Sequence record: DRR378314_462
Length of the DNA: 40,944 nucleotides
Reading direction: 5' to 3' (one strand)
Shown here in pieces: positions 9,589 to 40,524 of the stretch; positions within the stretch are counted from its first letter, which is position 1, and each line of letters opens with the position of its first letter. Under the pieces are notes generated by a model, which was given only the letters and a program-made list of their open reading frames with translations, had not been told where the DNA came from and did not search any database. Both the position numbers and the translations under genes were made by a program.

Positions 9589-9759
9589 CGATCTTCTCAT
9601 TATTTGTTTTTGTTTATACTGCAAATGGGTAATTTGGTTGGCAAATATACCTGAATAGCCATTTCCCTTTTCAGTATTTTATCTCATAATCCAGGGAAAG
9701 ACAGGATAAACAAAACCCTATTGCTATCCAACAGGTCCACCACCCAATTGGGAAATGCC

Positions 9760-27442: not shown

Positions 27443-27486
27443 GCCGTCATACCCCCACTTTTTATTTCCTAAAACCGTAACACTCA

Positions 27487-27524
27487 TTTTCCGATAGGAA
27501 AAGAATTTTTTTCCAATAGGAAAA
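27487..27524. promoter_or_regulatory. Tandem palindromic operators
   Basis: TTTTCC-gata-GGAAAA (27487-27502) and TTTTCC-aata-GGAAAA (27509-27524), 22 bp apart. Confidence 0.75.
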
Positions 27525-27529
27525 TTCAG

Positions 27530-27558
27530 TTGGCACCGCAGACAAGTGTTTTTATAAT
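27530..27558 (+). promoter_or_regulatory. Sigma70 promoter for the XRE regulator
   Basis: TTGGCA-N17-TATAAT, ending 7 nt before the ATG at 27565. Confidence 0.7.
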
Positions 27559-27564
27559 CAGCCC

Positions 27565-28161
27565 ATGATCAAAAGTCCGACATCCGAAAAACAGCGAAAT
27601 GAGTTTGGCAAGCGCCTTCGCGATCTGCGACAGGAAAGGGGCTGGACTCTTTCTGAAGTCGCGGAACGCTCAGGCCTTGCCATTTCTACCGTTTCAAAGG
27701 TGGAGCGGGGAATTATGTCACTAACCTATGATCGCTTGGCTTTATTGGCGTCCGGCCTTGGTGTTGATATGGCGACTTTCTTCTCTGCCAAGGGACAAAA
27801 TTTTAAGCCGGGCAGTTTTGCTGTCGCGCGAAAAGGTGAGTTTGAACAGCAGGAGACAAAGAATTATGTCTACGACATGCTGTTCCCGGATATTTGGCAT
27901 AAGTCAATGACCCCAATGATGGGTACCTTAAAAGCCCATGATATTCTGGATTTTGAGGATTTTGTTCGGCACCCCGGGCAGGAGTTTTTATTCGTGATTG
28001 AGGGTGTGGTGACTGTTCATATGGAAAGCGATGAAGCTGTCACTCTGCAAGCTGGGGAAAGCATCTATTTTGATAGTGCCCGAGGGCATCTTTATGCATC
28101 CACTGGGGATCAAGACGCGCGGATTCTTGTCGTCTGTACAGCGATTGAAACTGATACATAA
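27565..28161 (+). CDS. XRE-family HTH + cupin transcriptional regulator
   Basis: GKRLRDLRQERGWTLSEVAERSGLAISTVSKVERG; cupin HPGQEF..VIEG...L..GESIYFDS..GH. Confidence 0.94.
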   Translation: MIKSPTSEKQRNEFGKRLRDLRQERGWTLSEVAERSGLAISTVSKVERGIMSLTYDRLALLASGLGVDMATFFSAKGQNFKPGSFAVARKGEFEQQETKNYVYDMLFPDIWHKSMTPMMGTLKAHDILDFEDFVRHPGQEFLFVIEGVVTVHMESDEAVTLQAGESIYFDSARGHLYASTGDQDARILVVCTAIETDT

Positions 28162-28168
28162 ATCAAGT

Positions 28169-29065
28169 CTATCCCTTTGATTTCTTTGCACGCGCTAAAA
28201 TAAAAAGTCCGGACAAAACAATAACGCCGCAGCCAACCATCATCGGTAAATCGATGGTTTCGTTAAAGAAGATTACGCCAAGCCCTATCCCAAACATCAA
28301 ACGCGTGTAGCGAAAGGGTGTGACCACTGAAACAGCACCTGTTCTCATCGCTTTCATCAAACTGGTATAGGCACCAGCCCCCCAAAGCACTGCCAGCACC
28401 AGATAGGACATTGTCTCCAGCGACGGCATCAAAAAGGGTTTTTGCTCCCATACCCCATATAACCCACCGGCCAGTATAATCGCGATAAACCCGTAAAAGC
28501 CCAAGACAGATGCGCTTAAACTTCTCGGCGCTGCCCGACTTGCAAGATCCCGCCCAGCAAATCCCAACATGCCAATTACGGCCAGGATAGACAAGGCTGA
28601 GAAACTATCTGCTGCCGGCCGCAGAATAATCAATACTCCGATCAACCCGATGCAGATTGCTGTCCAACGGCGCCAGCCAACTTTCTCTTTAAAAAAAATT
28701 GCCGCTCCCAGCACCACAACAATGGGCGTTGCCTGCAAGATCGCCGTTGTTGCCGATAAAGAGGAAAACGCAAGCGCCAACACATAAAACAGACGCCCTA
28801 CGACTTCAAAGCAGATGCGAACCCGCATCGCCAGGGAAACACTATCTCTTATAAATATTGGCTCATTGCGATAAAGCGCGAGGATCAAAAAAACAATCGC
28901 TCCCCCAACCCCGAACAAGACCAGCACCTGGGCCACCGGTAAGCTTTCTGCAACGGCTTTGATAAACGCATCCTCAACCGCGAAAGCAGCCATCGCCACA
29001 ATCATCCAAATACTACCCAGCAGATTTGCCTGCCGATCTTCTTGAATGTGATCCGTTGAAGTCAT
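28169..29065 (-). CDS. DMT/EamA family transporter
   Basis: ~10 TM; A.AILQATP, F.EKVGWRRW.AI..G..GVLIILRP, V.PFRYTRL. Confidence 0.92.
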   Translation of the reverse strand: MTSTDHIQEDRQANLLGSIWMIVAMAAFAVEDAFIKAVAESLPVAQVLVLFGVGGAIVFLILALYRNEPIFIRDSVSLAMRVRICFEVVGRLFYVLALAFSSLSATTAILQATPIVVVLGAAIFFKEKVGWRRWTAICIGLIGVLIILRPAADSFSALSILAVIGMLGFAGRDLASRAAPRSLSASVLGFYGFIAIILAGGLYGVWEQKPFLMPSLETMSYLVLAVLWGAGAYTSLMKAMRTGAVSVVTPFRYTRLMFGIGLGVIFFNETIDLPMMVGCGVIVLSGLFILARAKKSKG

Positions 29066-29169
29066 TGAGATATGCCGTTTGCTGTGCAGCTCTGATCGAA
29101 AAAAGCCACGAAGAAGAGAAACCAGATTCTATATACAAAAAATCATAGGGCATAACCAACGGATAGTTG

Positions 29170-30120
29170 TTAGTTGGGAGAGAGCCCCAAAAAGGTGCCA
29201 TCGCTGCGACGGGTTACTTCTCGCATCAAAACGCCAAATCGCCCCGAAGTCCCGGGTGCAACGAAACCAATCGCATGAATGCGCGCTAACGGTTTGCCGG
29301 TAATTTTATTGGTGTTATATCGCTCCAGCCGGTCAATGACGTCGTTGTAGGAAGCACCGGTATAATCATCACCGATGATATAAATGGAAAGACTGATACC
29401 CGGCTTTGCATATTTCTTCAGAGCAACCTCTAGTCCTTCAACCGGACTACTGTTGGAACTACTGCGCCAACTGGAAAACGCCTTAAAGATATTCTGCCGG
29501 CGATTGGCCGTGTCGGGGATCCATTTCCCGCTATAGGCCGAGATTAAATGCACACCATTATCATTGAGGATCTGGAAGCCCTGTACCTTTGGATGGATGG
29601 CCAGAACGTTCTGCATTTCCCGTGTCACCTGCCGCCAGATAGCCTGCATACTGCCCGATGTATCTACAATAAACAGGACATAATCACTATCCACCGGAAT
29701 ACCGCCCACTTCCTCATCCCGCTTTTTAGGGTTGGTCGCCGGCCTGATGGTTGCACGGTTTAAACTCTCTTCGACCAGCTGCAACCCTTCCAAGTCATCT
29801 TCTGCTTTTGCCTCTGCCTGTTTAGCGGATTGTTTTTCCTGTTCAAGTTTTCGCACCGTTGCTTCCAACTGACCGATTTTTCCCTGACTGGAATTCAACT
29901 CTCCATCCATTTGGGATTTACGGGATTCCAGATCATCAATCATGCGTTCTGCTTTGGTGATTTGGGCCAATAAGTCCCTGGCCTGATCCATGGTTCCGTT
30001 AAATTCTCCATCCCCGGTTTTTGAAATCAGGATTAGCAGAACCACAGCCCCGAAACCGCAAGAGATGAGGTCCAGGAAGGAGAGGCTGAATAACTCCAAC
30101 GTCCTATTGCGGCGCCTCAT
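29170..30120 (-). CDS. ExbD/MotB-like TM anchor + coiled coil + vWA domain protein (B subunit 2)
   Basis: N-terminus FSLSFLDLISCGFGAVVLLILI; heptad-rich stalk; MIDAS FIVDTSGSM ... IYIIGDD ... IHAIGF; ATGA overlap with the upstream gene. Confidence 0.85.
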   Translation of the reverse strand: MRRRNRTLELFSLSFLDLISCGFGAVVLLILISKTGDGEFNGTMDQARDLLAQITKAERMIDDLESRKSQMDGELNSSQGKIGQLEATVRKLEQEKQSAKQAEAKAEDDLEGLQLVEESLNRATIRPATNPKKRDEEVGGIPVDSDYVLFIVDTSGSMQAIWRQVTREMQNVLAIHPKVQGFQILNDNGVHLISAYSGKWIPDTANRRQNIFKAFSSWRSSSNSSPVEGLEVALKKYAKPGISLSIYIIGDDYTGASYNDVIDRLERYNTNKITGKPLARIHAIGFVAPGTSGRFGVLMREVTRRSDGTFLGLSPN

Positions 30121-31187
30121 GGCCAACTCTCCGCTGGGCTGATCAGCAAACCCTTCGTTGCGAAGGTCCATCCCCAAAGCGCTGGCGCTGCTTCGGGGTC
30201 CCCTTCCAAGGGTAATAAAACAATATTTACCGGCCGCCCTTTATGAATGCCTTCTTTTTTGACAGTATGCTGAAACAGCTTTAGACGGCATTCCCCTGAA
30301 ATTGTTGAAGATTTTCCAAAGAGCGATGTACATTTTGAAAAGGGATTAATCGATCGATAGTTGGATGTTCCCTTGGTTGGCAAGCCGTCCGTCACCAGAT
30401 AATAATTTGTCGGTTGATCAGAAAAACCATTCACCGTTTCCAGTACCGCTTCCAGGTTTGTCGCCCCGGCGGGAACGACCCGATCTATGCTGTCAAATAC
30501 CAGTTGAACCGAAGCTGCATCAGAACCGGAAAACCAGTCGGAGGGGCCAATTGCAAATGCTTTTTCATTAAATCCGACAAACCTTGCGCGCGACTGTTTG
30601 GGAATGCGATTGGCCAACCATTTGACAATTCGCTGTACCCTCAGCCATTTCGGTCCTTGCTTCTTTTCCGCGTCAGAACTTGTTTTCCGGCTGATAATGT
30701 CGACCAGCATCTCATCCGTCATGGATGCGCTCGCGTCAATCAGAAACATAATCCGGCGTCCTTCAACTTTCAGCCCCAGCAGATATTCCTCTTCGCCGCC
30801 CTGATCAGATTGGACGACATCCGCTTTTTCCAACGGAGGCTTTTTGACGATCCGCTCTTTGACATTTTCAACATCCGCCACCTTATCCTCAGTCCGACTT
30901 TTAAACTCAGCAATAGAGCCCTGCAAATCCTGCTGCTGTCCGGAAAGACTTTGCAGCTTGGCTGTCAGTAGCTGGAGCTTCGCTTCCTGTTCAGTAACCG
31001 AGACTTCCAAGGCATCCACTTTGTCCTGACGCTGCTGAAGCTCCTGTTTCAGGCTATCCACTTCAACCGGCGTGTCTTCAGGTTGCAGTTTCAGCAGGAT
31101 CAAAATCAAAATGGCCGCACCAAGACCACAGGCCATAATGTCCAGGAACGAAAGATTAAACCCTTCTGTATCGTGGCGTTTGCGCAC
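30117..31187 (-). CDS. ExbD/MotB-like TM anchor + coiled coil + vWA domain protein (B subunit 1)
   Basis: N-terminus FNLSFLDIMACGLGAAILILILL; coiled coil; MIDAS FLIDASASM ... TNLE ... YLVTDGLPT. Confidence 0.85.
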   Translation of the reverse strand: MRKRHDTEGFNLSFLDIMACGLGAAILILILLKLQPEDTPVEVDSLKQELQQRQDKVDALEVSVTEQEAKLQLLTAKLQSLSGQQQDLQGSIAEFKSRTEDKVADVENVKERIVKKPPLEKADVVQSDQGGEEEYLLGLKVEGRRIMFLIDASASMTDEMLVDIISRKTSSDAEKKQGPKWLRVQRIVKWLANRIPKQSRARFVGFNEKAFAIGPSDWFSGSDAASVQLVFDSIDRVVPAGATNLEAVLETVNGFSDQPTNYYLVTDGLPTKGTSNYRSINPFSKCTSLFGKSSTISGECRLKLFQHTVKKEGIHKGRPVNIVLLPLEGDPEAAPALWGWTFATKGLLISPAESWP

Positions 31188-31197
31188 AGATGGCTTC

Positions 31198-31971
31198 CTA
31201 TTTACTGACGCGGTTCAAAAGGAATTTTTCGCAATATTCCTGGGTTCGGATCAACTGACCGTCCTGAAACCGCTGCAAGCCATGCAACAACAGCATTAGC
31301 GGAATTGAAAGACAAAGCGCCACCAGGGTTGAATTAAACGCAACACCAAGGCTATCTGTCATAAGGGTAATATCACCCGCCAGTGCTTCATCCGCCTGGG
31401 TTAATGCGGCACCGATGCCGCGAACTGTTCCAATAAAACCAAATGATGGAATGGCCCATATCACAAAACGGATCATGGTGTTGCCCGCATCCTGACGCAA
31501 GGCCAAGGCATCAACACTTAATGAAATCGCCTCCGACGTGCTATGAACATCATCGGTCATCAAATAGCGGCGAATACTGGCAAGCAATGTCTGCACCACT
31601 GGTGTGGTCGTAATTTTTTCCGGCAGTTGATCAATTTCCTGCATCGTTTTTCGCAATGTCTGTTTTTCATCTTCGCCCTCACCGGCCTCCAACATCGCAC
31701 CCAGAAAATCGATCCCATAAAGATGGTTATCGTTAAAAATTCCCCAATATCGGGCAAGGAGGAGACAAAGACACCAAAGGGCCAGCGTCACACAGATTTG
31801 CTGTTCCCAATCCTTAACAATTACAGTCAGTACCTGCGGTGCAGCCTCCCCTGCCTGGCGTGCAAGCGCGACCAGGCGTTCGGCCTCCGGGATGATGGCA
31901 ATCCAATAGATGAACCAGACACCCAAGGCACAGATCAGAAGCAACCCAGTGGCAAGAACAAAATTTTTCAT
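31198..31971 (-). CDS. MotA/TolQ/ExbB proton/ion channel family protein
   Basis: IWAIPSFGFIGTVRGIG and LGVAFNSTLVAL..S TM pair, plus two N-terminal TM segments. Confidence 0.9.
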   Translation of the reverse strand: MKNFVLATGLLLICALGVWFIYWIAIIPEAERLVALARQAGEAAPQVLTVIVKDWEQQICVTLALWCLCLLLARYWGIFNDNHLYGIDFLGAMLEAGEGEDEKQTLRKTMQEIDQLPEKITTTPVVQTLLASIRRYLMTDDVHSTSEAISLSVDALALRQDAGNTMIRFVIWAIPSFGFIGTVRGIGAALTQADEALAGDITLMTDSLGVAFNSTLVALCLSIPLMLLLHGLQRFQDGQLIRTQEYCEKFLLNRVSK

Positions 31972-32115
31972 TTAAATATCCACCGGAAAAGAGACAGGAG
32001 AGTTAAGCGTAATCGCAGATTTTCCACTTTGCGCATAGGCATATTGAAACAGAAAAACGGCCCCCAGGATTGCCAAACCCACAATCACATATTTTTGTCG
32101 CTTAATTTGTTTCAT
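31972..32115 (-). CDS. 47-aa signal-peptide microprotein ending FPVDI (not in ORF track)
   Basis: MKQIKRQKYVIVGLAILGAVFLFQYAYA|QSGKSAITLNSPVSFPVDI*. GAGGA SD, ATGA overlap with the upstream stop, and its TAA abuts the next ATG, so it fills the gap exactly. Confidence 0.85.
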   Translation of the reverse strand: MKQIKRQKYVIVGLAILGAVFLFQYAYAQSGKSAITLNSPVSFPVDI

Positions 32116-34118
32116 TGGACATCCTCATATAAATAACGGGCGATCCTAAAGCCGATTTTGTCGCTTCCTTCAGAAGCAGATGCCCGATAAGCCGGGCGCA
32201 GCTCTGTTAATGTTCCAGACGCCCAGTTAGATCCCTTTGTCATATGTTTCTGGCCGGTCTGATCACCAAGCGGGTCTTTAAAGGTTTGTGTCTTGAGCGG
32301 TGGCACGAGGGTATAATAATCATGAACCCATTCGGACACATTCCCAAATAGATCATACAAACCGGCTTGGTCCTTTTGAAAACTCTTTACTGGTGCCACC
32401 CCGGCATAACCGTCCACATATCCCGGAACATAAAACTTGGTTTTGCCGTTCGCTGCCTCGTCTGCGATATTGCCAGCGCCCTTTGGAATAACCGCTTCAT
32501 CGCCCCATGGGAAAATTGTCTGCTGTTTCCGTTTCGCCTTGCGCGCAAGCCATTCCCACTCCGCTTCACTTGGCAAGCGGTAACCTGTTGACGCTGGGTC
32601 GAAGCCTGCATATCTGGCTCCGTTAAACCGATAAAAAGGTGGCAGCTCCTCGCGCTCGCTTAACCAGTTGCAATATTGGGCAGCCTCACTCCAGTCGATG
32701 TTTGTCACTGGAAAATCTGGTCCTGCTTTATTAATGCGGCGAAATTGACTGAACTGCTTCTCTGTCACTTCGGTTTGGGCAATATAAAAATGGCGTTTCA
32801 ACGTAATCTGGCGCAGAAATTCGTTAGCCCTTTGTCCCTTTTCATGACGGGGCGCACCCATCAATATATCTGTCGGCTTAAACAAGATCATGTTCATGTT
32901 AGCCAGATTTTTGTAAGTCGGCTTGGCGGACGCCAATGTTGCTTCTTCGTTGGTCTTTAGTGTTACTGAAATCGTCGTCACCCGCGCTGGCGTCGGGCGG
33001 AATACCTTTTTCACCGTTTCATAGCCTTGCTTTTGCAAGGTGATTTCGTGGGAAATTGCAGGGAGCCGCAAGGTGGCGGGTGTCGTGCCATGCGGCTGGC
33101 CATTTATCATCAACGTGGCCGGGGGATCCGCCTGAATTCGAACTTCACCTATTCGAAGTTTCAGATCAAAGGCGACTTTCTTGCGCTCATCTGCCCGCAA
33201 GGTGACTTCCTGTTCCTGATATCCATATCCATCTTTTTCGTATCGAACATAATATTTCTGATTTGGCGCCAACTGGATATCCGACCCGGCCCGAACCGAT
33301 TTGCCGTTCACAGTCAACCTGCCCCCAGACGGATCAACCGATGCTGTAACAAAAGCCGGTTTTTGCTGCAGTCGATAATGACGATCCACCTGACTGTTCG
33401 AAAAGGTGATATCAATCTGATCAACTATAGGTGCAAATCCCTGCTTGGTAATCTTCACATCGTATAAACCTGCAGGCACTTCGAATTCTGCAGGTATAGT
33501 CTGCACAATTTCCCCGTTAAACATCACGGTTGCATCCGGTGGTGTCACATTAAGGGTCAAAGACCCCATTGCGGGTTTAAGCTCAAACGATTGTGTGAGC
33601 GTTTCACCGCGAGCTAGCTCAAGCTCTGTTTCCAACGGTTGAAAATACGGATGCTCGATCCTGAGATCAAAACGCCCTGCATCCAAGGTTGCTTCAAAAT
33701 TCTGTACCGGTGGGTACATCTGATCATTTAAATACCACGTCACAGGTTCGGTCAGGTTTGCGACATTCAGGTCAAGTTTGCCTGGCAATGGAACCATCTG
33801 TAAATTTAGGGTCTTTCCTTCTTCTTCAGGGTCGATAATTCGCGGCAGCTCTTCAAAACCGGGGGACTTGGCAGTAATCTTTGGATAACGCGAGAGCGAA
33901 AAAAGGCTTCCCTGCACATAAAATCCAATTCCGTCATCCACCTGAATTTCGGCAGCCTGAGCTGCGTCCAAAGGCGCAATCCGAACAGATGTCACTTTCA
34001 TCAGAAATAGAAAAACAGCGGACGCGAGCACAGCACCTAAAAGGATTACGCCTAAGCCCAGCAGAACAACCTGCTGCCGCCTGGCGGCTTTTTCAATTTG
34101 ATGTTTAAATTCGCTCAT
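32112..34118 (-). CDS. Membrane-anchored PEGA-repeat + FGE-sulfatase (SUMF1/PvdO-like) domain protein
   Basis: N-terminal TM; PEGA-type repeats (G.L.LNVTPPDATV..NG, G.YDVKITKQGF, ADPPATLMING...GTTP); FGE motifs TEVT, PV.NI.W.EA..YCNWLS, YRLPSEAEWE, GLYDL.GNV.EW, IGFR. Confidence 0.9.
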   Translation of the reverse strand: MSEFKHQIEKAARRQQVVLLGLGVILLGAVLASAVFLFLMKVTSVRIAPLDAAQAAEIQVDDGIGFYVQGSLFSLSRYPKITAKSPGFEELPRIIDPEEEGKTLNLQMVPLPGKLDLNVANLTEPVTWYLNDQMYPPVQNFEATLDAGRFDLRIEHPYFQPLETELELARGETLTQSFELKPAMGSLTLNVTPPDATVMFNGEIVQTIPAEFEVPAGLYDVKITKQGFAPIVDQIDITFSNSQVDRHYRLQQKPAFVTASVDPSGGRLTVNGKSVRAGSDIQLAPNQKYYVRYEKDGYGYQEQEVTLRADERKKVAFDLKLRIGEVRIQADPPATLMINGQPHGTTPATLRLPAISHEITLQKQGYETVKKVFRPTPARVTTISVTLKTNEEATLASAKPTYKNLANMNMILFKPTDILMGAPRHEKGQRANEFLRQITLKRHFYIAQTEVTEKQFSQFRRINKAGPDFPVTNIDWSEAAQYCNWLSEREELPPFYRFNGARYAGFDPASTGYRLPSEAEWEWLARKAKRKQQTIFPWGDEAVIPKGAGNIADEAANGKTKFYVPGYVDGYAGVAPVKSFQKDQAGLYDLFGNVSEWVHDYYTLVPPLKTQTFKDPLGDQTGQKHMTKGSNWASGTLTELRPAYRASASEGSDKIGFRIARYLYEDVQ

Positions 34119-35604
34119 TACTGATTACCGTTACCTCAATCTGTCGATCCTCCGGCTTTATTGTGACCGAAACCGATTTCGTTCTAAAGCCTTCCCGCCG
34201 CCCTTCAAACATATACTCTCCCGGTTTCAGTTTGATCTTGTAGCGTTCAACCACACCGACTTTTCCAATCCCCCGTACACTGACATTTGTCAATTGATCG
34301 GAGATCACCCAGACTTCGACTTCAATATTTCGGCGTTCGATTTCAGTCTCAAGTTTGTTTTCAAGCTTGGCAAGGCCGGGGCTTAACGCTGAATAAAGAG
34401 CGGCAGCCTCCAGCGTCCGGTCCGCCTGTTTGCGAACTGTTTCTGCTGACAGTCGCTGGGGTGCCCCCAGAAATTTCTGAATTTGTGCCGTCGCCTGCAA
34501 TATTTTTTCTGACAGATTTATCGTTTCAACGATTTCTCCATTATTCGGTCGCAGGGCATTTGCATTTTGATATTGTCTCAACGCTTCATCCCAATCATCT
34601 GCTTGGATAGCAGCCTCACCACCTGCTACGAACTGCCGAAAGCTCAACTCTTCTTTCAACTGATTAACCAGCCGCAACAGATTTTCAGTTTCCTCCCGAT
34701 TTGGAAATATCTGCCTGGCCTTTGAATATGCTGATTGCAGCTTTTGAAGATTTTCTTCACGGCTTGCCGCCAGTCCTGCTGCCACATGTCGATCATAAGC
34801 CTGTTCTGTCAGCAGGGACTCTATGTCTTTAATTCGTTGCTCATATGTTATCCGATCCGGATCCAATTCAACAACCTGTTTGGAGAGCGCCAGTTCCTTT
34901 TCCAAATTATTTTCGGTCGCCGCCACACGGGCTTGATCGATCAGGCCCAAAAGCATCGGTAATTTTTCAATACGCGACAGTAAATTCAAAGCCTGTTCAT
35001 CTACTGGCTTCAATTCTAAGGCACGATTAATCTGAAATAAGGCTTCGGCATGATCATCAGCCTGAAAAGCCAGGCGCGCATTGATCAGCGCCTCTTCAAA
35101 AGTTGCTTCATACTGTGCGGTGGCTGTACTTGCTGCCGAGATCAACTTATTGGCTTCTTCAAATGCCGGTTCCAATTGGCCATTGGCAAGCTGTTGAATG
35201 ATTTGATCCTTCAGGGACAGCAAGTCTTTTTGTATCTGACTATCCCATCCTCCAAACCCTTCGGATTTTACTGTTTCCTCATACGTCATTTCATAGCGGT
35301 TCAGAACGTCTATTATCTCTTGGCGGCTGCGATCTTGGGATATTTGCGGAGTAGAAGGTATCGGCGGGGTTGAGGGCTCCAATTGAGGATCAGTTTTCTC
35401 AACAGTGTATGGCTGTCTTTCCGGTTGCAGCTCCGACGGCACCTCCATGACAGGATCCGCCGTCTGTACAGCAGACTGATGATCGAGCTGGGTGACCAGA
35501 TAAATAACGGCCGCTCCCAACAGCAATATCAACACGGCCAAAACCGTTATCATTAACTGATTTCGGGATTTCCGGGTCGCTTCTTCCAGCTTCTGTTCCA
35601 ACAT
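34105..35604 (-). CDS. Membrane-anchored Pro-rich linker + TPR/helical repeats + C-terminal PEGA-like beta domain protein
   Basis: N-terminal TM; PSTPPIPSTP linker; TPR-like ALELKP, VELDP, NALRP turns; C-terminal LKPGEY.FEG.REGFR. Confidence 0.75.
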   Translation of the reverse strand: MLEQKLEEATRKSRNQLMITVLAVLILLLGAAVIYLVTQLDHQSAVQTADPVMEVPSELQPERQPYTVEKTDPQLEPSTPPIPSTPQISQDRSRQEIIDVLNRYEMTYEETVKSEGFGGWDSQIQKDLLSLKDQIIQQLANGQLEPAFEEANKLISAASTATAQYEATFEEALINARLAFQADDHAEALFQINRALELKPVDEQALNLLSRIEKLPMLLGLIDQARVAATENNLEKELALSKQVVELDPDRITYEQRIKDIESLLTEQAYDRHVAAGLAASREENLQKLQSAYSKARQIFPNREETENLLRLVNQLKEELSFRQFVAGGEAAIQADDWDEALRQYQNANALRPNNGEIVETINLSEKILQATAQIQKFLGAPQRLSAETVRKQADRTLEAAALYSALSPGLAKLENKLETEIERRNIEVEVWVISDQLTNVSVRGIGKVGVVERYKIKLKPGEYMFEGRREGFRTKSVSVTIKPEDRQIEVTVISNERI

Positions 35605-35612
35605 GGCGCTTG

Positions 35613-36836
35613 TTACAGTTGTTTTTCAGGTGTCTTTTCCTGCTCATAAATTTCTTTCAGGAAACTCCGCCACTCTGAAAACTGCTTTTCTGCCGTTCCG
35701 GTCAATTCTTTGGTTTCTCCTTCAAACTCAACGACTTGAGGTGCCAATTCTGCATCTACGGATTCGCCTAGCTCATCCAATGTATCAGCATGGAATTTGG
35801 TTTCATTGCTGGTTTTAAAGGCTTCGGAGAAAAGAACAGCTGATCCCACGCCAGCAACCGCTGCGCCAGCCATTGCCCCAGTTGAGCGGCCATAACTGCC
35901 ACTATTCCCACTGGCAACAGCCAGCCCAACACCTAAAATCGCCAGCAAAACACCGCCAACCACCTGGGCCGTCTGTTTCTCTTCCGCTTCTTTTAAAGCA
36001 ATTTCAGCTTCCTGGCTTTGCTTTTGCCAAACGACATAACTGGATGACAGATTAGCGTTAAAGGCTTCATAATGTTGCTGCAGATTATCCACGTAAAGCT
36101 GGTCTCTAATTCGGATCGCCCGAATTCGACGCAGCATTGGATCTTCTTCACTTGGCAGGCTCACCAACTCTATTTTACCATCTTGTTCTCGGATATGCTC
36201 TGCAAAGGCCTGCTCTGAAAAGTTACTGCCAAACCGCATTTCAGTAACTGATTTCAGTAAGGCCAGCTCGGTCGCATCCGCAAGCTCCAACCGCTTCACA
36301 AGGTCATCAGCAGCCTGTTCAAAAAGCGGATCATAAGGATCCTTGCCTTTGTTTCGAATGTTTTGATGAAAACGCTCCGACACTTCATGTTCATACTCTT
36401 CCTCGTACCAGGGAGCGCCGGATATATCTAAAACGTTGAGAGACATACCCACTTCCAAACCAGTGGATTTATCAATGGTTCCAAGGATATAAAGATCGCC
36501 TGTCGCTTCTGAATTGGGCGTAACACGTACAGCCCCAAACTTTCCAGTCGCCTCCAGCTTATCTTTTAAATTCAAAGCGAAACGGACGGCTTCGGCCTTG
36601 CGAAGTTCCGGCCAAATTCGCTCTTCTTGCAGAACATCATCATCTTCTGGGATGTTGGGATCAAATTCAGGGATGATAATATCCAACTTCGGGCGATCCG
36701 CTTCAGGCGTCACTTTTGCAGCTGCCATCACGTCACTGGAAACACGAGGCCCCACCCGGGTGGACATACCCGGTGTCACGCAACTGGTTAAGAGAAAACA
36801 GCTACACACCAACCAGCCCAAAAGATTTTTGACCAT
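35613..36836 (-). CDS. Lipoprotein with coiled coil and glycine-zipper hydrophobic hairpin
   Basis: Lipobox LTS|C; VVGGVLLAILGVGLAVA...GAMAGAAVAGVGSAVLF; GGAGAG SD before ATG 36836. Confidence 0.75.
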   Translation of the reverse strand: MVKNLLGWLVCSCFLLTSCVTPGMSTRVGPRVSSDVMAAAKVTPEADRPKLDIIIPEFDPNIPEDDDVLQEERIWPELRKAEAVRFALNLKDKLEATGKFGAVRVTPNSEATGDLYILGTIDKSTGLEVGMSLNVLDISGAPWYEEEYEHEVSERFHQNIRNKGKDPYDPLFEQAADDLVKRLELADATELALLKSVTEMRFGSNFSEQAFAEHIREQDGKIELVSLPSEEDPMLRRIRAIRIRDQLYVDNLQQHYEAFNANLSSSYVVWQKQSQEAEIALKEAEEKQTAQVVGGVLLAILGVGLAVASGNSGSYGRSTGAMAGAAVAGVGSAVLFSEAFKTSNETKFHADTLDELGESVDAELAPQVVEFEGETKELTGTAEKQFSEWRSFLKEIYEQEKTPEKQL

Positions 36837-36861
36837 ACTCACTCTCCACATGTCCGCCCGT

Positions 36862-37458
36862 TTAAATCTGAGGCAATCCCTTTAACTTGCGATATTCATT
36901 CCACAACTTCGCCCGCTTTTCAGGGTTCGGTTCATTTTCGGCAGCTTCGCGAACCCGTTGCTGCAGTATACTATCATTATCTGTCGCAGGTATATCTTCA
37001 GGTGCTTTCCCATTGTTTAAAGTTTGCTGTTGCCGTGCAGTGGATTGCTGATCGCTCTCTCTTGGGTCAATAGGATTACTGGCAGTTGCATCAGTTTCAG
37101 CTTTTGCCTCGGCCTGTTCTGTTCCCTCTATTCCTGTTGATGCCGTTGAAGCTGCAGAAGCACCCGCCGCGCCGCTGCCTGATCCACTGCCATCAGAACC
37201 TGAAGATCCGTTGCTATTTTGACTGGCAGAGGATTGCTGCAAGCAGTTTTCATATTTATTCAACGACTCAAATAGCGCGCTATCCATTCGCTCTGTGATT
37301 TCCTGCTGCGTCAGCCCCTCTCCTCCTCGATACTCAACGGCATTCTCAGAGCAGTCATTATTTTCATTAGATTGCCCATGGGCAACCGGCGCAAGCCAAA
37401 TGCAGCATGCGAAGACAAGAGACAACGGCACGTTCAGGAACTGTTTCATAACCCGCAT
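36862..37458 (-). CDS. Exported hypothetical protein with Ser/Gly/Ala low-complexity linker and helical C-terminal motif
   Basis: Signal peptide ...PVAHG|Q; two Cys in the mature N-domain; C-terminus DNDSILQQRVREAAENEPNPEKRAKLWNEYRKLKG. Start could be 37470, 37458 or 37449. Confidence 0.7.
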   Translation of the reverse strand: MRVMKQFLNVPLSLVFACCIWLAPVAHGQSNENNDCSENAVEYRGGEGLTQQEITERMDSALFESLNKYENCLQQSSASQNSNGSSGSDGSGSGSGAAGASAASTASTGIEGTEQAEAKAETDATASNPIDPRESDQQSTARQQQTLNNGKAPEDIPATDNDSILQQRVREAAENEPNPEKRAKLWNEYRKLKGLPQI

Positions 37459-37484
37459 AAACACCATCACAAAAGCAGCCTTAT

Positions 37485-37513
37485 ATTTTAGAGGACCTCA
37501 TCAGACAGGTCAA
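37485..37513 (-). promoter_or_regulatory. Sigma70 promoter for the envelope operon
   Basis: Minus strand TTGACC-N17-TAAAAT. Confidence 0.7.
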
Positions 37514-37726
37514 CTTTGAGGGGAATAAGACACGCACCTACTCCACAAAGGCGACCTACCCATCGGGTAACATACATATAAACTAAAGAATATCAGTCGT
37601 TCATGGCATAAATTTGTTCGAGCATACTGGCCCTGTCAGGTCTATTTCAAATCTTTAAACGATGGCACAGCTTTAACAAGGCTGATCGCGGCCTAATTCT
37701 ATCCCATTAGAGAGTCAAACCTGCAC

Positions 37727-37754
37727 AAAAAAGGGCCCAAAAAAGGGCCCTTTT
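37727..37754 (-). terminator. Intrinsic terminator after the ABC permeases
   Basis: Minus strand AAAAGGGCCC-T6-GGGCCC-T6. Confidence 0.85.
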
Positions 37755-37781
37755 ATTCAGTCTTTAATAGAAGAAGCACCC

Positions 37782-38966
37782 TTATCCAGGAGATATTCCC
37801 CTAAGCCGTTCTGCGCGGCGTCTCAAAAATTCCAGCGTCGTCAACATCAGCACTGACAACACAACCAGTATAGTCGCCACAGCCAGAATGGTCGGGCTGA
37901 TTTGCTCCCGCAGACCTGTAAACATCTGCCACGGCAATGTTTTCTGCCCTGCCGAGCCGACAAAGAGAACCACAACCACCTCATCAAATGAAGTGATAAA
38001 GGCAAACAAACCACCGGAGACCACGCCTGGCAAAATCAGGGGCATCTGTACCCGGAAAAAGGTCGTGATCGGGTTCGCGCCCAGGTTGGCTGCCGCGCGT
38101 GTCAAGCTATGATCAAATCCAACAAGTGTGGCTGTCACCGTGATAATGACGAACGGTATGCCAAGAGCCGCATGGGCAAGTACGACGCCAACATATGTCC
38201 CCTGCAAACCAACCCGGCTGTAGAAGAAATACATGCCCGCTGCAGAGATGATTAACGGCATGATCATCGGAGAAATCAAGATCGCCATTATTGCCCGGCG
38301 AAAAGGAACAAACGGCTGGCTAAGACCGATCGCCGCTAGCGTGCCTAACGTAACAGATATGATTGTTGCCGCAGGTGCAATTGCAAAACTATTCTTGATG
38401 GCCCCTTGCCAATCGGAATTGGTAAAGAAATCTTCATAATGCTTTAGAGAATAGCCCGCAGGATCGAAGTTCAACATCTCTGGTGTGAATGTGAAAAAGT
38501 TCTCTGCATTAAAGCTGAGCGGCATCACTACGATAATCGGGGTAATCAGGAAAATGAAAATCGCCCAGCAAATAACAACGAAAGTGTGATGCCAAAGCAC
38601 TTGGCCAGTTGTCGCATAGGATGGAAGACGTCGCCGATATTCGCCTGTGGCGATCCAGAAGACAAACCAGTTGAAAACCCAACCAAAAATAACACCAATT
38701 ACCGCACCTGATATCTGCGCCTGCAAATACCCAAGAACAAGCCCAACTGCGAGCAGAACGAATTGGGATATCCGTTTCGACTTAATCAGCCGAACCATCA
38801 GGAAAGCAGCGATAGCGCCGACAACCAAACCCGCTGCAATGCCGACCAAGGGCATATTCTGGGTCATTCCAAACAGCAACCCAAATGCGGCTAGGAAGAA
38901 GGCGCCTCCGCCAGCGATTAACTGGTTCGTGGCGATGATTGCTTTTTCTTTTTTCAGTACGGTCAT
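37782..38966 (-). CDS. Polyamine-type ABC transporter permease (PotC-like) with extra N-terminal TM region
   Basis: FLITPIIVV.PLSF, SP.I.P.I, AH..LG.PFV, EAA-like LTRAAANLGA, F.TSFDEVV, TLP. Confidence 0.9.
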   Translation of the reverse strand: MTVLKKEKAIIATNQLIAGGGAFFLAAFGLLFGMTQNMPLVGIAAGLVVGAIAAFLMVRLIKSKRISQFVLLAVGLVLGYLQAQISGAVIGVIFGWVFNWFVFWIATGEYRRRLPSYATTGQVLWHHTFVVICWAIFIFLITPIIVVMPLSFNAENFFTFTPEMLNFDPAGYSLKHYEDFFTNSDWQGAIKNSFAIAPAATIISVTLGTLAAIGLSQPFVPFRRAIMAILISPMIMPLIISAAGMYFFYSRVGLQGTYVGVVLAHAALGIPFVIITVTATLVGFDHSLTRAAANLGANPITTFFRVQMPLILPGVVSGGLFAFITSFDEVVVVLFVGSAGQKTLPWQMFTGLREQISPTILAVATILVVLSVLMLTTLEFLRRRAERLRGISPG

Positions 38967-38970
38967 ATCC

Positions 38971-40524
38971 TCAGCCCCCCAGTTTGACGTTATCGATGCC
39001 GACAATTCGGTCATAAGCCCAATAGAGTAGCAGGACCACAAGCAGCAAAATGGTTCCGAGTGCGGCTGCAAGACCCCAGTTTAGTGAACTTGAAATGTGG
39101 TAGGCAATCCGGTTTGAAATAAAAGTGCCCGTTGTTCCACCAACAATTTCCGGTGTGATGTAATAGCCGATGGATAGAATAAACACTAGGATGGACCCAG
39201 CCCCGATACCTGGAACCGACAACGGGAAATAAACCCGCCAAAATGCAGTCCAATTGGTCGCCCCAAGTGACTTTGCCGCCCGGGTATAGGTCTCGGGAAT
39301 GGTTCGCATCACTGAGTAAAGCGGTAGGACCATGAAGGGTAATAGAATATGTGTCATGGCAACGATTGTACCAAACTGATTATTAATCAAAACCAGCCGT
39401 CCCGCTTCATCCACCAGATTAAGCCAGACCAGGGTATCATTAATGACGCCCTGCTGTTGCAGCATCACCTTCCAAGCTGAAGTTCGAACCAGCAACGAGG
39501 TCCAAAACGGCAAGAGGACCATGATCATCAGGAGATTGGCTTCGCGCGCGGGCCGGTTGGACATTAGCCATGCAATCGGATAACCGAGTAGGATCGCACA
39601 TCCGGTAATCACCATTGACATAAACAGGGTTCGCCCGAACAGAATCCCATAAATCCGTTCATTCTCAGGCCGAACCGAATAGCCGTCAAAATCCTTCTTC
39701 AGATCCGCAGCATTCAAGAAATAACCTTCAGTATATGTGGACGAGTAGGTTCGAAGCGTTTTCCACACATCCTCACTTAACCAGTCTTTATCAAATTTCT
39801 GAAATGCGGCTCTAAAATCCACAGTTTCAAAATCAGAGACAGCGTTGGCCGATTTCTGGATGAGGGCATTCCCGGCTGTATCGCCGGAGATTTGTCTCAT
39901 ATCATCGTAAAGAGCGACGAAGAGAAAATCTTCGAGCCCCTCTTCTTTGGGGACATCCCCATCTTCTATGACATACTCCTGCCAGGCTGAATAAGCCCAC
40001 ATCGCCCGGGGCAAGACGTCATTAACCGCATCATCCTCGGACAGCGTCTGCCAAGTTGCGTAGTCATTCCATTTGGGATCAATTGCTGCAAACTGGTCTC
40101 TGTATACTTCCACATCAAGGCGGCGAACCCGGCGCCCGGACTTACGGAATAACGAAGAAATACCTGTTTGCTCATAATTCAAGCGCGAGCCAAGGCGTGT
40201 ATGTTCTTTCTTTTCAGCAGCAACATACATATCCACGTAAAGCGCAGAAAACGTCGCCTGACCGGGAACGATCGGAGCTTTCTCCTCGTCCTCATCTATC
40301 ATCGCGACGGTTTGCGGCAGTGTTTCTTCGACGATCTTATTCTCTACAGATCGGAATAACATATCCGCAATGGGGGCAATAAAAGTAATTAGAATGAATG
40401 CCAGCAAAGGTGCAATCAGCATCAGAGCCCTAAATTTCTGCAGTCGCAATGACCGTTGCAAGCTGCGTTTTAGGGGCGTCCCGTCAGCTGCCAACACGGG
40501 ACCATCTTTGATCGTATCACTCAT
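38971..40524 (-). CDS. Polyamine-type ABC transporter permease (PotB-like) with large periplasmic insertion
   Basis: LLGYPIA, LPFWTSLLVRT.AW, HILLPFMVLPLY, RAAKSLGA, G.YITP..VGG, NWGLAAAL. Confidence 0.92.
   Translation of the reverse strand: MSDTIKDGPVLAADGTPLKRSLQRSLRLQKFRALMLIAPLLAFILITFIAPIADMLFRSVENKIVEETLPQTVAMIDEDEEKAPIVPGQATFSALYVDMYVAAEKKEHTRLGSRLNYEQTGISSLFRKSGRRVRRLDVEVYRDQFAAIDPKWNDYATWQTLSEDDAVNDVLPRAMWAYSAWQEYVIEDGDVPKEEGLEDFLFVALYDDMRQISGDTAGNALIQKSANAVSDFETVDFRAAFQKFDKDWLSEDVWKTLRTYSSTYTEGYFLNAADLKKDFDGYSVRPENERIYGILFGRTLFMSMVITGCAILLGYPIAWLMSNRPAREANLLMIMVLLPFWTSLLVRTSAWKVMLQQQGVINDTLVWLNLVDEAGRLVLINNQFGTIVAMTHILLPFMVLPLYSVMRTIPETYTRAAKSLGATNWTAFWRVYFPLSVPGIGAGSILVFILSIGYYITPEIVGGTTGTFISNRIAYHISSSLNWGLAAALGTILLLVVLLLYWAYDRIVGIDNVKLGG

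Follow-up and report, generated by a model that had tools for sequence, protein, structure and literature searches.

The 40,944-nt stretch of sequence record DRR378314_462 analyzed here (the window) contains a gene of the MotA/TolQ/ExbB family packed together with two genes for vWA proteins and five further genes, raising the question of what these eight genes might build in the cell envelope. The first-pass annotation had proposed an undescribed ion-powered machine spanning the envelope. Based on the findings set out below, we consider it likely that the operon specifies a self-contained proton- (or ion-) driven motor of the 5:2 type that acts on an outer-membrane-proximal complex.

Organization of the operon

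The eight genes are tightly packed (operon span 29170-37470; Table 1), and their reading frames bear out the description of a fully co-directional set. Junctions from g1 to g8 measure, in order, +10, +8, -14, -4, 0, +10 and -4 nt; hence the earlier statement that no overlap or gap exceeds 10 bp holds for six junctions, but one overlap spans 14 nt. Gene g5 starts within the last 4 nt of g4, and its stop abuts the g6 start. A TTGACC-N17-TAAAAT promoter had been placed in front of g1, and this sigma-70-like sequence is indeed present as a consensus match (10 of 12 positions). In a scan of positions 28900-37900 it was the best site on the operon strand, and its score was the highest overall, tied with two plus-strand sites. 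Since the same region yielded 15 sites compared to 9.9 +/- 2.9 in shuffled sequence, the promoter match alone constitutes weak evidence. Reading frames upstream of the operon encode BPD_transp_1 permeases. The terminator said to follow this ABC operon can be read in the sequence as a hairpin with a T-run, but the terminator scan did not report it, probably because flanking A/T pairs lengthen its stem.

Table 1. Positions in the window of the operon genes and of the flanking signals
Feature	Coordinates	Strand	Description
g1	36862-37470	minus	ORF; 202 aa from GTG
g2	35613-36851	minus	ORF; 412 aa, lipoprotein
g3	34105-35604	minus	ORF; 499 aa, inner-membrane-anchored TPR protein
g4	32112-34118	minus	ORF; 668 aa, predicted PEGA rod and FGE-sulfatase-like head
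g5	31972-32115	minus	ORF; 47-aa pre-peptide
g6	31198-31971	minus	ORF; 257 aa, MotA/TolQ/ExbB-family channel subunit
g7	30117-31187	minus	ORF; 356 aa, B-type subunit 1
g8	29170-30120	minus	ORF; 316 aa from ATG at 30120, B-type subunit 2
Promoter, sigma-70-like TTGACC-N17-TAAAAT	37513..37485	minus	In front of g1; consensus match only
Hairpin GGGCCC-T6-GGGCCC and T-run	~37727-37754	minus	Read in sequence; ends upstream ABC-permease operon

All eight products possess an N-terminal hydrophobic segment (signal peptide, lipobox or membrane helix), in agreement with the envelope targeting ascribed to each of them. Pfam and NCBIfam searches of the eight proteins returned zero matches to ExbD, TonB, TolA, TolB, Pal, OmpA-like domains or TonB-dependent receptors, so the reported absence of these canonical partners from the operon stands.

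Conservation and distribution of the module

Conservation was measured across 80 related loci, all of which contain g6 by construction (80/80). The MotA-like gene and both vWA genes were found together in every locus, and the block g2-g3-g4-g6-g7-g8 was collinear, in the order seen in the window, in 68 of the 80. Most of the 12 non-collinear loci are cut by contig ends; g1-g3 are inverted in locus L045, g3 is not detectable in L049, and g2 and g3 are absent within the DNA covered in L050. Hosts include Alpha-, Beta- and Gammaproteobacteria, Desulfobacterota and Binatia, and 20 of 401 genomes in a phylum sample carried the MotA-like gene. The synteny check called for by the first-pass annotation thus shows a block kept across phyla, and the eight-gene operon is a real, widely conserved unit. 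Three related genomes possess 2-4 ExbD genes each, located beside other ExbB/TolQ genes elsewhere, and no ExbD gene adjoins the MotA-like gene in these three. The presence of such ordinary pairs besides this module, which has no canonical B subunit, supports the view that its motor is distinct from them.

No gene outside the block was conserved across the related loci, and its flanks differ even between congeners. Such changing neighborhoods are a feature in favor of anti-phage defense like that of Zorya, where an effector is set off by a sensor motor resembling MotAB. The motor of Zorya is the 5:2 complex ZorAB, and residues 5-73 of g7 match ZorB (E 0.014). However, gene content is constant rather than variable across phyla, none of the eight proteins gave a significant PADLOC match, and the module had zero matches in 72,556 plasmid and 50,697 phage records. 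Moreover, the block lacks Zor effectors and any nuclease, helicase or other cytoplasmic effector, all of its products facing the envelope. The defense reading is already disfavored and in our estimation exceedingly improbable. Neither the defense nor the surface motility role raised for this operon finds support in the PADLOC, plasmid and phage searches.

The putative motor core

The g6 product matched PF01618 (MotA_ExbB) with E 8.7e-12 and 45.3 bits, the cut-off being 22.9; this bears out its family assignment, and g6 is a putative pentameric A subunit. Three of its segments exceed the hydrophobicity threshold (residues 9-27, 61-79 and 210-228), while a further helix may be expected, from the family, around the conserved GFIGTVRG (residues 178-185); we take this layout to be more MotA-like than that of the three-helix TolQ/ExbB. 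Positions T182 and T215 were invariant in 15/15 aligned sequences. Residue T182 aligned weakly (E about 0.9) with the TM3 Thr of solved MotA chains, and g6 is very distant from solved MotA, ExbB and TolQ chains in general (best profile-search E 0.78).

The AF2 model of g7 (pLDDT 81.8) displayed a TM helix (residues 14-33), a helix of roughly 73 residues (43-115) and an alpha/beta domain (145-343). The sequence matched the Pfam vWA model at only E 0.013; it is the AF2 model that shows the vWA domain, its best PDB matches being vWA domains (CMG2, CLCA1 and BatB; E 2.9e-7). Its MIDAS reads DASAS...T...D, and residues D16, D151, S153, S155, T266 and D267 were invariant in 37/37 sequences; the pore-helix F(L/I)D..C motif and DxSxS were each found in 80/80 homologues. 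Judged by 25% identity over the first ~160 residues (E 1e-11), g8 is a paralogue of g7 and is predicted to share its layout. It has a DTSGS MIDAS, invariant D17, D153, S155 and S157 (51/51), and homologues that retain the pore-helix Asp motif (80/80) and DxSxS (79/80). Translation of g8 most likely begins with ATG 30120, whose overlap with the g7 stop reads ATGA, rather than with the upstream TTG 30177, which would yield 335 aa and whose first 19 codons cross the end of g7 in another frame. The g7 and g8 pore helices are ExbD/TolR-like in sequence, with one Asp each; neither matched the ExbD Pfam family, and the ZorB match of g7 was the only one of this type. These findings substantiate the two vWA-tipped, Asp-bearing B-like subunits of the original proposal.

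Bat operons include a TPR partner, as this operon does, and two BatB vWA structures (3ibs and 4jdu) are among the fold matches of g7. Together with the strong divergence of g6 from solved motors, these features would fit a Bat-like periplasmic vWA/TPR scaffold that is not a motor, its MotA-like protein being a degenerate channel or mere membrane anchor. Contrary to this reading, which we regard as highly improbable, the pore-helix Asp is kept in 160/160 homologues (80 per paralogue) and both g6 threonines are invariant in the 15 sequences aligned; a channel that had lost its function would not be expected to show purifying selection on precisely these ion-pathway residues. Furthermore, the block contains neither a MoxR ATPase nor a DUF58 protein.

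Relation to a predicted class of TolQ-like motors

A core consisting of a TolQ-like protein and a heterologous TPH-vWA pair has been predicted in silico using AF3 models (Mol Biol Evol 2025;42:msaf138, PMC12204202). In those models, two Asp residues lie inside the Thr ring of a TolQ-like pentamer, with the vWA pair as the rotating element. We propose that the operon belongs to this class, for which that paper has an Idiomarina seed. As described there, the class shares with the operon a tolQ/MotA_ExbB-family gene directly beside two different TM-tethered vWA genes, the lack of a tolR, exbD or motB gene, a pore helix with a conserved Asp and no SHLS motif, an A subunit with a conserved Thr, and an occurrence mainly in Proteobacteria. 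Section 8 of the paper states the function of the class as unknown; its text gives neither function nor phenotype for this class and notes, for its first (SHLS-type) vWA family, a lack of reported deletion phenotypes.

We found no follow-up on the class in the literature, which agrees with the assertion that no system of this composition has been characterized. The label 'undescribed' applies to part of the operon: the three-gene core was predicted in 2025, but the five accessory genes and the micropeptide did not appear in any publication we found. The main text of PMC12204202 does not mention PEGA, sulfatase/formylglycine, glycine zipper, microprotein or small ORF; therefore the present analysis adds g1 to g4 and, most notably, the micropeptide g5 to the published core, with the proviso that Fig. 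4c or the supplements of that paper may show neighbors.

The membrane-anchored partners g3 and g4

Pfam matches of g4 to PEGA (4 stretches, E 2.4e-32) and FGE-sulfatase (E 2.5e-38) confirmed the PEGA/FGE protein, which was found in 78/80 loci. Its sequence matches in the PDB were FGE/SUMF1 (~4e-14), PorK (9mzu and 9ots; 7e-12) and PvdO (5hha; 1.1e-7). The catalytic Cys pair of human FGE aligned to a Ser and a gap in g4, and the last 120 residues contained 0 Cys in 78/78 g4 homologues listed. The protein is thus predicted to be an inner-membrane-anchored PEGA rod bearing a cysteine-less FGE-sulfatase-like (C-type-lectin-fold) head, which, lacking the FGE cysteines, is presumably non-catalytic in the FGE sense.

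The g3 product combines a TM anchor (residues 19-37) with TPR, a linker rich in Pro and, at the C-terminus, a conserved beta domain, and was in the window's position in 69/80 loci. Its designation as a TPR protein did not reach the Pfam cut-off for the window protein alone, but was supported by the family profile, which matched consensus TPR proteins (E 2.6e-18) as well as Hop/PP5 TPR domains; TPR_2 was found in 12/35 members.

Since g3 and g4 are each anchored N-terminally by one TM helix after a short basic cytoplasmic segment, and extend far into the periplasm, they could be the true force transducers, like TolA/TonB. In this arrangement, the vWA pair would be a fixed anchor on a static structure, its heads holding as MotB/TolR do on peptidoglycan, while the rotating MotA-like ring drags g3 and/or g4. 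The N-terminus of g3 displayed sub-threshold similarity to FliL and GltJ (E 0.017-0.07; FliL chain 9hmf_O, E 0.2), single-pass proteins that partner MotAB and AglRQS, and PEGA domains have been described as peptidoglycan-associating (PMC7159879). However, the FliL and GltJ matches are far below cut-offs, column counts revealed no conserved polar motif like the TolA/TonB SHLS/His in the g3 and g4 TM helices, and the PMC12204202 models assign rotation to the vWA pair. We consider this Tol/Ton-like arrangement unlikely, albeit the strongest competitor of the vWA-axle motor.

The micropeptide g5, the lipoprotein g2 and the small protein g1

The g5 product begins with a Sec-type signal or TM segment and ends in a nearly invariant C-terminal core of 13 conserved residues terminating in ...FP-x-(D/N)-I. 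A strict version of this motif was found directly before the MotA-like gene in 55/78 loci and a relaxed version in 72/78, with the remaining six showing variants by eye. Although g5 itself had no Pfam or NCBIfam match, its relatives comprise 590 protein clusters at E <= 0.001; no Pfam domain was found in 120/120 clusters listed, of the 590, and the informative names among those listed were 'hypothetical protein', save one 'TRAP-type transporter permease subunit'. This 47-codon frame is a real, near-universal gene without a family name.

The lipobox Cys24 of g2 was invariant in 36/36 aligned homologues, and g2 occupied the window's position in 69/80 loci. Its layout comprises an alpha/beta N-domain, a long helical hairpin with a Gly-rich hydrophobic segment (Kyte-Doolittle peak at residues 297-315) and a small C-terminal domain. 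The AF2 model (pLDDT 79.9, pTM 0.75) had pLDDT <50 at residues 299-341, as for the Gly-rich hairpin. Its fold matches, among them FlgT/LPHT ring (E 2.3e-4), PelC, LptE and the TolB N-domain, were weak, with E between 2e-4 and 1e-2 and a TM-score to query of about 0.2.

From its sequence, g1 appears to be a small periplasmic or secreted protein; an alternative start at ATG 37449 yields a typical signal peptide. Its middle is Ser/Gly/Ala-rich, its C-terminal motif is basic and conserved, and it had no Pfam or NCBIfam match. By tblastn it was found in 53/80 loci, 51 of these in the window's position, and 13 Alteromonadales-type loci carry a diverged secreted protein there.

A signal-peptide-like N-terminus followed by a conserved core would also suit a ribosomal precursor peptide that is bound or modified by the g4 head, the product being exported by the motor and an alpha-helical outer-membrane pore formed by g2. 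The overlap of the g5 start with the g4 stop, the hydrophobic Gly-rich hairpin of g2 and the end-to-end alignment of the g4 head with PvdO, a cysteine-less periplasmic FGE-like protein, are in keeping with such maturation and export. FGE recognizes the motif (C/S)-x-P-x-R, which S-x-P-x-D in the g5 core loosely resembles. Against these points, the core varies little over hosts ranging from Alphaproteobacteria to Binatia, which is easier to reconcile with a structural ligand than with a product that diffuses. In addition, the g4 matches to NCBIfam PvdO (residues 401-662, E 2.3e-14, 53 bits against 500) and GldK (87.8 bits against 350) fall far under the family cut-offs, and the block lacks an outer-membrane barrel, ATPase, immunity or receptor gene. 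We therefore judge peptide export to be improbable.

A proposed mechanism and its relation to known systems

In the vWA-axle motor, five copies of g6 would form an inner-membrane ring, entered by the g7 and g8 pore helices, one Asp each, as a heterodimeric axle that replaces ExbD/TolR/MotB. Ion flow via the Asp/Thr pathway would turn ring and axle against each other. Each axle protein would continue as a helix of ~70 residues, roughly 11 nm, and then a vWA head with MIDAS; this length would place both heads deep in the periplasm. There they may meet the heads of the inner-membrane-anchored g4 (PEGA rod, FGE/lectin-like) and g3 (TPR solenoid, beta domain), as well as lipoprotein g2, with its N-domain like those of ring-forming outer-membrane lipoproteins and its hydrophobic Gly-rich hairpin. 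Through these contacts the motor would do mechanical work on the outer-membrane-proximal complex. The secreted micropeptide g5, possibly cleaved, and the small periplasmic g1 may be constant parts of the machine, in the role of a ligand, plug or adaptor. As to the process served, our guess is maintenance of the outer membrane or envelope rather than motility or defense.

As proposed from its genes, the machine resembles TolQRA-TolB-Pal and ExbBD-TonB in having an inner-membrane MotA/TolQ/ExbB-family ring around a dimeric Asp-bearing axle, in passing energy to the outer-membrane side, and in combining long periplasm-spanning, inner-membrane-anchored partners with a putative outer-membrane lipoprotein. 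It differs in that a coiled coil and vWA heads form part of its axle, and in lacking an ExbD/TolR domain, a TolA/TonB C-terminal domain, the SHLS motif, a TolB propeller, an OmpA-like Pal and a TonB-dependent receptor. A similar design is seen in the T9SS motor GldLM/PorLM and its PorK/GldK-PorN ring: the B subunit of this 5:2 motor extends into the periplasm as a long stalk that reaches a complex with a cysteine-less FGE-sulfatase-fold protein, as proposed here. Unlike PorK/GldK, g4 is not a lipoprotein but is anchored by a TM helix and PEGA rod; relatives of GldL, GldM, GldN and SprA are absent from the operon, and T9SS hosts are Bacteroidota, in contrast to the Proteobacteria, Binatia and Desulfobacterota found here.

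With MotAB/PomAB the operon shares the A-subunit Pfam family and the single Asp in the B-subunit helix, but it lacks an OmpA-like peptidoglycan-binding domain and flagellar context, and the cytoplasmic loop of g6 is short (about 85 residues). Zorya and AglRQS-Glt have non-flagellar 5:2-type motors with accessory proteins; vWA proteins occur in Glt (CglB) and Bat, and TPR proteins in Bat and Glt, although no Glt protein reached cut-off (GltJ, E 0.07). In contrast to Zorya, Agl-Glt and Bat, this operon joins each vWA domain to a pore helix of the proposed motor itself in a single protein.

Organization and conservation of the gene block

The eight minus-strand genes, designated g1 to g8, are closely packed, their successive junctions measuring +10, +8, -14, -4, 0, +10 and -4 nt. 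The first-pass annotation had described overlaps or gaps of 10 bp or less throughout, which holds for six junctions and fails for one, a 14-nt overlap. Its observation was otherwise real and well made, in that the eight packed genes, the promoter and the hairpin were all recovered and the block is kept across related loci. The promoter-type site ahead of g1 tied two plus-strand sites for the top scan score and was the best on the operon strand. Because the scanned region held 15 such sites compared with 9.9 +/- 2.9 in shuffled sequences, this match is only suggestive. Upstream of the block lie two ABC permease genes (BPD_transp_1) ending in a hairpin and T-run, the terminator reported to follow the ABC operon; it was read in the sequence and was not listed by the terminator scan. 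A gene for an EamA-type transporter lies downstream of g8, after 104 nt.

Coordinates of the eight genes and of neighboring features
Feature	Position	Strand	Description
g1	36862-37470	minus	signal-peptide-like N-terminus; no family match
g2	35613-36851	minus	lipobox; strongly hydrophobic Gly-rich segment 297-315
g3	34105-35604	minus	one membrane helix and TPR region
g4	32112-34118	minus	N-terminal membrane helix, four PEGA stretches, FGE-sulfatase domain
g5	31972-32115	minus	47-codon ORF ahead of the MotA-like gene
g6	31198-31971	minus	Pfam MotA_ExbB
g7	30117-31187	minus	membrane helix, long helix, vWA domain (AF2 model)
g8	29170-30120	minus	g7 paralog; start at ATG 30120
Promoter TTGACC-N17-TAAAAT	37513..37485	minus	ahead of g1; 10/12 positions match
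Hairpin GGGCCC-T6-GGGCCC and T-run	~37727-37754		read in the sequence; unlisted by terminator scan
HTH_3 and cupin regulator gene	27565-28161	plus	further downstream; ordinary; not conserved with the block
DAO-family FAD oxidoreductase gene	26312-27487	minus	further downstream; ordinary; not conserved with the block

The most likely g8 start codon overlaps the g7 stop as ATGA and corresponds to the Met preceding the basic stretch, from which the conserved part of the protein starts in relatives. An alternative TTG start at 30177, proposed by the ORF finder, was rejected: its 19 extra codons are the other frame running across the end of g7, and tblastn with this extension yielded wrong-frame alignments in nine loci. 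False extensions of this kind at the N-terminus may also be present in annotations of the g8 family.

Database searches with g6, the MotA/TolQ/ExbB-like protein, returned 3815 relatives at E <= 0.001, the closest of them named Sneathiella. A scan of 185,579 species genomes, one genome per species, gave at least 600 stretches, at least 594 of them encoding a g6 relative, and the best 80 loci (L001-L080) were taken for comparison together with up to 10 kb of flanking DNA. By tblastn, g6, g7 and g8 were each present in 80/80 loci and g4 in 78/80, while g2, g3 and g1 were detected at the window position in 69/80, 69/80 and 51/80, respectively. The six genes g2, g3, g4, g6, g7 and g8 shared one strand and the window order in 68/80 loci, so that the expectation of co-conservation was borne out by the synteny survey. 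Most of the other 12 loci stop at a contig edge; in addition, L045 carries g1-g3 inverted and downstream of the vWA genes, g3 was undetectable in L049, and g2 and g3 were absent from the locus DNA compared for L050. A diverged secreted protein occupies the g1 position in 13 loci without a g1 match.

In none of the 80 related loci was a gene that flanks the block in the window (26312-29065 and 37782-40524) found beside it, no gene outside the block was conserved across these loci, and g7 had no match in plasmid and phage collections. The window flanks are not shared even with congeners (including L001-L004) whose MotA-like proteins are 70-85% identical; therefore, gene order within the module is preserved even as its location in the genome varies. 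Carriers among the best 80 loci, most of them marine, belong to the Alphaproteobacteria, Gammaproteobacteria, Nitrosomonadaceae, Desulfobacterota and Binatia. Taken together, the co-occurrence, gene order, wide taxonomic spread and unshared flanks establish that the eight genes are one conserved chromosomal module.

The class is common, being represented in at least 594 of the 185,579 species genomes, mostly of marine bacteria, and in 20 of 401 genomes in an even sample of the Pseudomonadota, the phylum of one relative (threshold E <= 1e-30; all matches were at 5.5e-70 or below). Cultured carriers include Pseudoalteromonas xiamenensis, Alishewanella sp. d11, Magnetovibrio blakemorei MV-1, Aestuariispira insulae, Sneathiella sp. 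HT1-7 and Glaciecola spp., and the operon is accordingly open to deletion in cultured strains.

The motor core

The g6 protein matched Pfam MotA_ExbB (PF01618) at E 8.7e-12 (45.3 bits, cut-off 22.9) and contains three hydrophobic segments above threshold. Two threonines, T182 in a G-F-I-G-T-V-R-G stretch and T215 in A-F-N-S-T, were invariant in 15/15 diverse sequences, and T182 aligned, albeit weakly (E ~0.9), with the Thr in TM3 of MotA chains of known structure. Against PDB chains, the single g6 sequence gave MotA alignments that were weak only, and the MotA-like family profile reached a best E-value of just 0.53.

Both g7 and g8 begin with a short basic segment followed by a helix bearing (A/S)-F-(L/I)-D-x-x-x-C-G, the Asp of which was present in 80/80 g7 homologs and 80/80 g8 homologs. 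Its position and context are those of the essential Asp in ExbD, TolR and MotB, a correspondence that PMC12204202 also states for the class described below. No His or SHLS pattern was seen when the two pore helices were read. A non-motor scaffold is, in our view, a less likely identity for a block in which these Asp and Thr residues are so constant.

Toward the C-terminus, the MIDAS motif DxSxS was found in 80/80 g7 homologs and 79/80 g8 homologs, and the later MIDAS residues T266 and D267 of g7 were invariant as well. In Pfam, these two proteins yielded nothing beyond coiled-coil noise and a VWA_2 match below threshold. An AF2 model of g7 (37 homologs, pLDDT 81.8) comprised a membrane helix (residues 14-33), a long helix (43-115) and an alpha/beta domain whose best PDB matches were vWA domains, namely those of CMG2 (E 2.9e-7), CLCA1 and BatB. 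Since g7 and g8 are 25% identical over their first ~160 residues (E 1e-11), this paralogy and the MIDAS motif point to a putative vWA fold at the C-terminus of g8.

Much as had been noted from the sequence, no ExbD, MotB, OmpA, TonB, TolA, TolB or Pal family was matched among g1-g8 in Pfam or NCBIfam. Three related genomes each contained 6-8 MotA_ExbB and 2-4 ExbD matches, and their ExbD genes adjoin other ExbB/TolQ genes, never this MotA-like gene, which argues that the present system is an extra motor with vWA proteins as its probable B subunits.

Relationship to a predicted class and to known systems

A three-gene core of this kind has been predicted in silico as the 'TolQ-like + TPH-vWA pair' class (Mol Biol Evol 2025;42:msaf138, PMC12204202), for which the main text reports that the vWA genes usually occur as heterologous pairs, that in AF3 models a Thr ring surrounds the proton-binding Asp of a trans-pore helix, and that the class is found mainly in Proteobacteria and Verrucomicrobia, its function being given as unknown. 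Compared by features alone, the window core displayed every testable feature of this class: a MotA/TolQ/ExbB gene beside vWA genes without tolR, exbD or motB (adjacent in 80/80 loci), a heterologous vWA pair (g7 and g8 both in 80/80 loci), a trans-pore helix with Asp and without SHLS/His in g7 and g8, and a C-terminal vWA fold, by model for g7 and by paralogy and MIDAS motif only for g8. The same cluster is found at a Pseudidiomarina locus (L063), where the MotA-like protein is 45% identical. The seed of the published class is from Idiomarina.

Because the three-gene core is already in print as a prediction, the finding is not wholly new; the first-pass annotation was largely sound in interpreting the block as an ion-powered trans-envelope machine and mistaken in calling it undescribed. 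What is added beyond the published core is a fixed eight-gene parts list, a near-universal micropeptide, an FGE-like head without cysteines, a lead to the fold of the lipoprotein and an estimate of prevalence. The terms PEGA, sulfatase, formylglycine, glycine zipper, microprotein and small ORF are all absent from the main text of PMC12204202; its figures or supplements may show neighbors. A literature search found no other description of the class and no experimental follow-up. The available part of a survey of MotAB homologs (PMC12505986, mBio 2025) does not mention vWA, and the vWA-MoxR conflict systems, as set out in part of PMC7159879 (eLife 2020), are other systems than g1-g8.

The OmpA-like peptidoglycan-binding domain of the flagellar stator MotAB is absent here, the C-terminal domain of g7 being instead modeled as vWA, and no GldL, GldM or GldN match was found among g1-g8. 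Defense is likewise a less likely function: the Zorya and PADLOC models gave ZorB as their best match to g1-g8, at E 0.014 over 69 residues of g7, and the rest was coiled-coil noise.

Accessory proteins and a possible arrangement

In g4, Pfam identified the PEGA stretches at E 2.4e-32 and the FGE-sulfatase domain at E 2.5e-38. Human FGE aligned to this head at E ~4e-14, its two catalytic Cys (C336/C341) facing a Ser and a gap, and the last 120 residues held 0 Cys in 78/78 homologs listed. The absence of the catalytic pair therefore rules out g4 as a formylglycine-generating enzyme (SUMF1/FGE). Likeness of a similar degree was seen to the type IX secretion ring protein PorK (E 7e-12), to PvdO (E 1.1e-7) and to the variable lectin-fold protein TvpA, and g4 fell far short of the family cut-offs for GldK and PvdO (GldK/PorK, 87.8 bits vs 350). 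PorK/GldK is a lipoprotein, whereas g4 has a TM anchor and no lipobox. PMC7159879 treats FGE-sulfatase domains as lectin-fold modules that bind ligands, and PEGA as a domain that associates with peptidoglycan.

The window g3 protein alone scored 22.1 bits against TPR_2, compared with a cut-off of 27, and TPR_2 was matched in 12/35 members of its family. The g3 family profile matched consensus TPR proteins at E 2.6e-18, as well as the TPR domains of Hop and PP5. No family in Pfam or NCBIfam was matched by g1.

The lipobox Cys of g2 was invariant in 36/36 aligned homologs. An AF2 model of this protein (pLDDT 79.9, pTM 0.75; residues 299-341 below 50) contains an alpha/beta N-domain, the best PDB matches of which were weak: FlgT with the LPHT ring (E 2.3e-4), DUF330, PelC, the TolB N-domain (E ~5e-3) and LptE. 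Most of these proteins are lipoproteins associated with the outer membrane, and several form rings; as a lead rather than a finding the model suggests that g2 may be a ring-type lipoprotein. In the ESM Atlas, g2 fell among unnamed clusters only, with TraT as the nearest named cluster at 0.75, a value rated as often due to chance. The weak resemblance to TolB is the sole link to Tol-Pal/Ton, whose TolR/ExbD periplasmic domain, TolA/TonB C-terminal domain, TolB propeller and Pal OmpA-like domain are absent from g1-g8.

To our knowledge, ion-driven 5:2 motors are the only means by which Gram-negative bacteria power the periplasm and outer membrane, and every class examined to date (Mot, Ton, Tol, Gld/Por, Agl and Zor) has proved to serve a distinct major process. 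From the observed parts list and conserved residues, we infer contacts, a stoichiometry and a process served, and commit to a 5:2-type motor in which a g6 pentamer would surround a heterodimeric g7/g8 axle. Ion flow through the Asp/Thr pathway would drive the pentamer and axle. At 0.15 nm per residue the 73-residue helix of g7 would measure ~11 nm and, with the vWA head, would extend ~15 nm into the periplasm, while g4, by its PEGA rod, and g3, by its linker plus TPR, would hold their heads at a comparable height. There, g2 would meet the vWA, g3 and g4 heads from the outer-membrane side, and the motor would pull or turn this outer-membrane-proximal assembly, with g5 and g1 as small fixed components. 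Part of the interest of such a machine is an axle fused to adhesion domains.

The main rival uses the same parts and assigns them differently, the vWA pair serving as an anchor and g3 and g4 as transducers that are dragged along, in the manner of Tol and Ton. A search of the g3 and g4 TM helices for a TolA/TonB-like conserved polar motif found none.

A near-universal, putatively secreted micropeptide

The least expected piece of the module is g5. Its product (MKQIKRQKYVIVGLAILGAVFLFQYAYAQSGKSAITLNSPVSFPVDI) starts with basic residues, contains a hydrophobic core and shows an A-x-A site following residue 28; it looks like a Sec pre-peptide that would be cleaved at this site. Immediately ahead of the MotA-like gene, an ORF that shares the C-terminal core of g5 was found in 55/78 testable loci with a strict pattern and in 72/78 once this was relaxed to P-x-x-(F/L)-P-x-(D/N)-I-stop. 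Variants were seen by eye in the remaining 6/78, one of which lacks a stop after the motif. The motif in L021 (~9730-9930) has no stop after it and its frame runs on, and the L045 ORF has an ambiguous base. Alignment of 51 sequences revealed P44 and I47 to be invariant and L37, P40, F43 and D46 to be nearly so. A profile search returned 590 protein clusters at E <= 0.001; 120/120 of those listed lacked a Pfam domain, and their informative names were all 'hypothetical protein', save one TRAP-type transporter permease subunit. These results demonstrate that g5 is a real, unnamed and near-universal component.

A role in peptide maturation and export, for which the pre-peptide form of g5 might speak, appears less likely to us than a motor of which the peptide is a part. 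Our fullest reading of g1-g8, which we offer tentatively and regard as doubtful in its entirety, is an uncharacterized class of trans-envelope machine, present in about 1 in 20 of the Pseudomonadota species sampled. Its proton-driven motor would have an axle ending in two metal-dependent adhesion (vWA) heads, which would act on an outer-membrane lipoprotein ring via lectin-like and TPR scaffolds, and the universally conserved secreted peptide (~13-19 residues after cleavage, with a nearly invariant C-terminus) would be its obligatory subunit, ligand or substrate. If true, the machine would have a peptide component without counterpart in the Tol, Ton, Mot, Gld and Zor systems.

Candidate partners of the peptide were sought in two ways. 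A predicted complex of the g8 vWA domain (121-316), Mg and g5 (18-47), a pair chosen in view of the clade switches given next, was run without controls or own alignments and gave ipSAE values of 0.02 and 0.01, which count neither toward binding nor against it. In the Alteromonadales-type clade in which g5 ends in ...FP-x-N-I (L061, L063, L066, L072, L074, L075, L076 and L079), g8 has 7 switched columns that are otherwise at least 93% conserved, including a change of the MIDAS motif from DTSGS to DNSGS and of Arg to Gln; the corresponding numbers were 2 for g7, 2 for g2, 1 for g4 and 0 for both g3 and g6. In the Glaciecola/Agaribacter-type clade with g5 ending in ...LPSDI, 5 conserved columns of g6 are switched, and the TM3-TM4 loop accounts for three of these. 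Since a single clade underlies each signal, both are confounded by descent, and these switches are a lead to possible co-variation of g5 with g8 and g6 that may reflect descent instead. The TPR domains of Hop and PP5 clamp EEVD tails, and one idea, by analogy, is that the g3 TPR domain might clamp the free C-terminus of g5 in the same manner.
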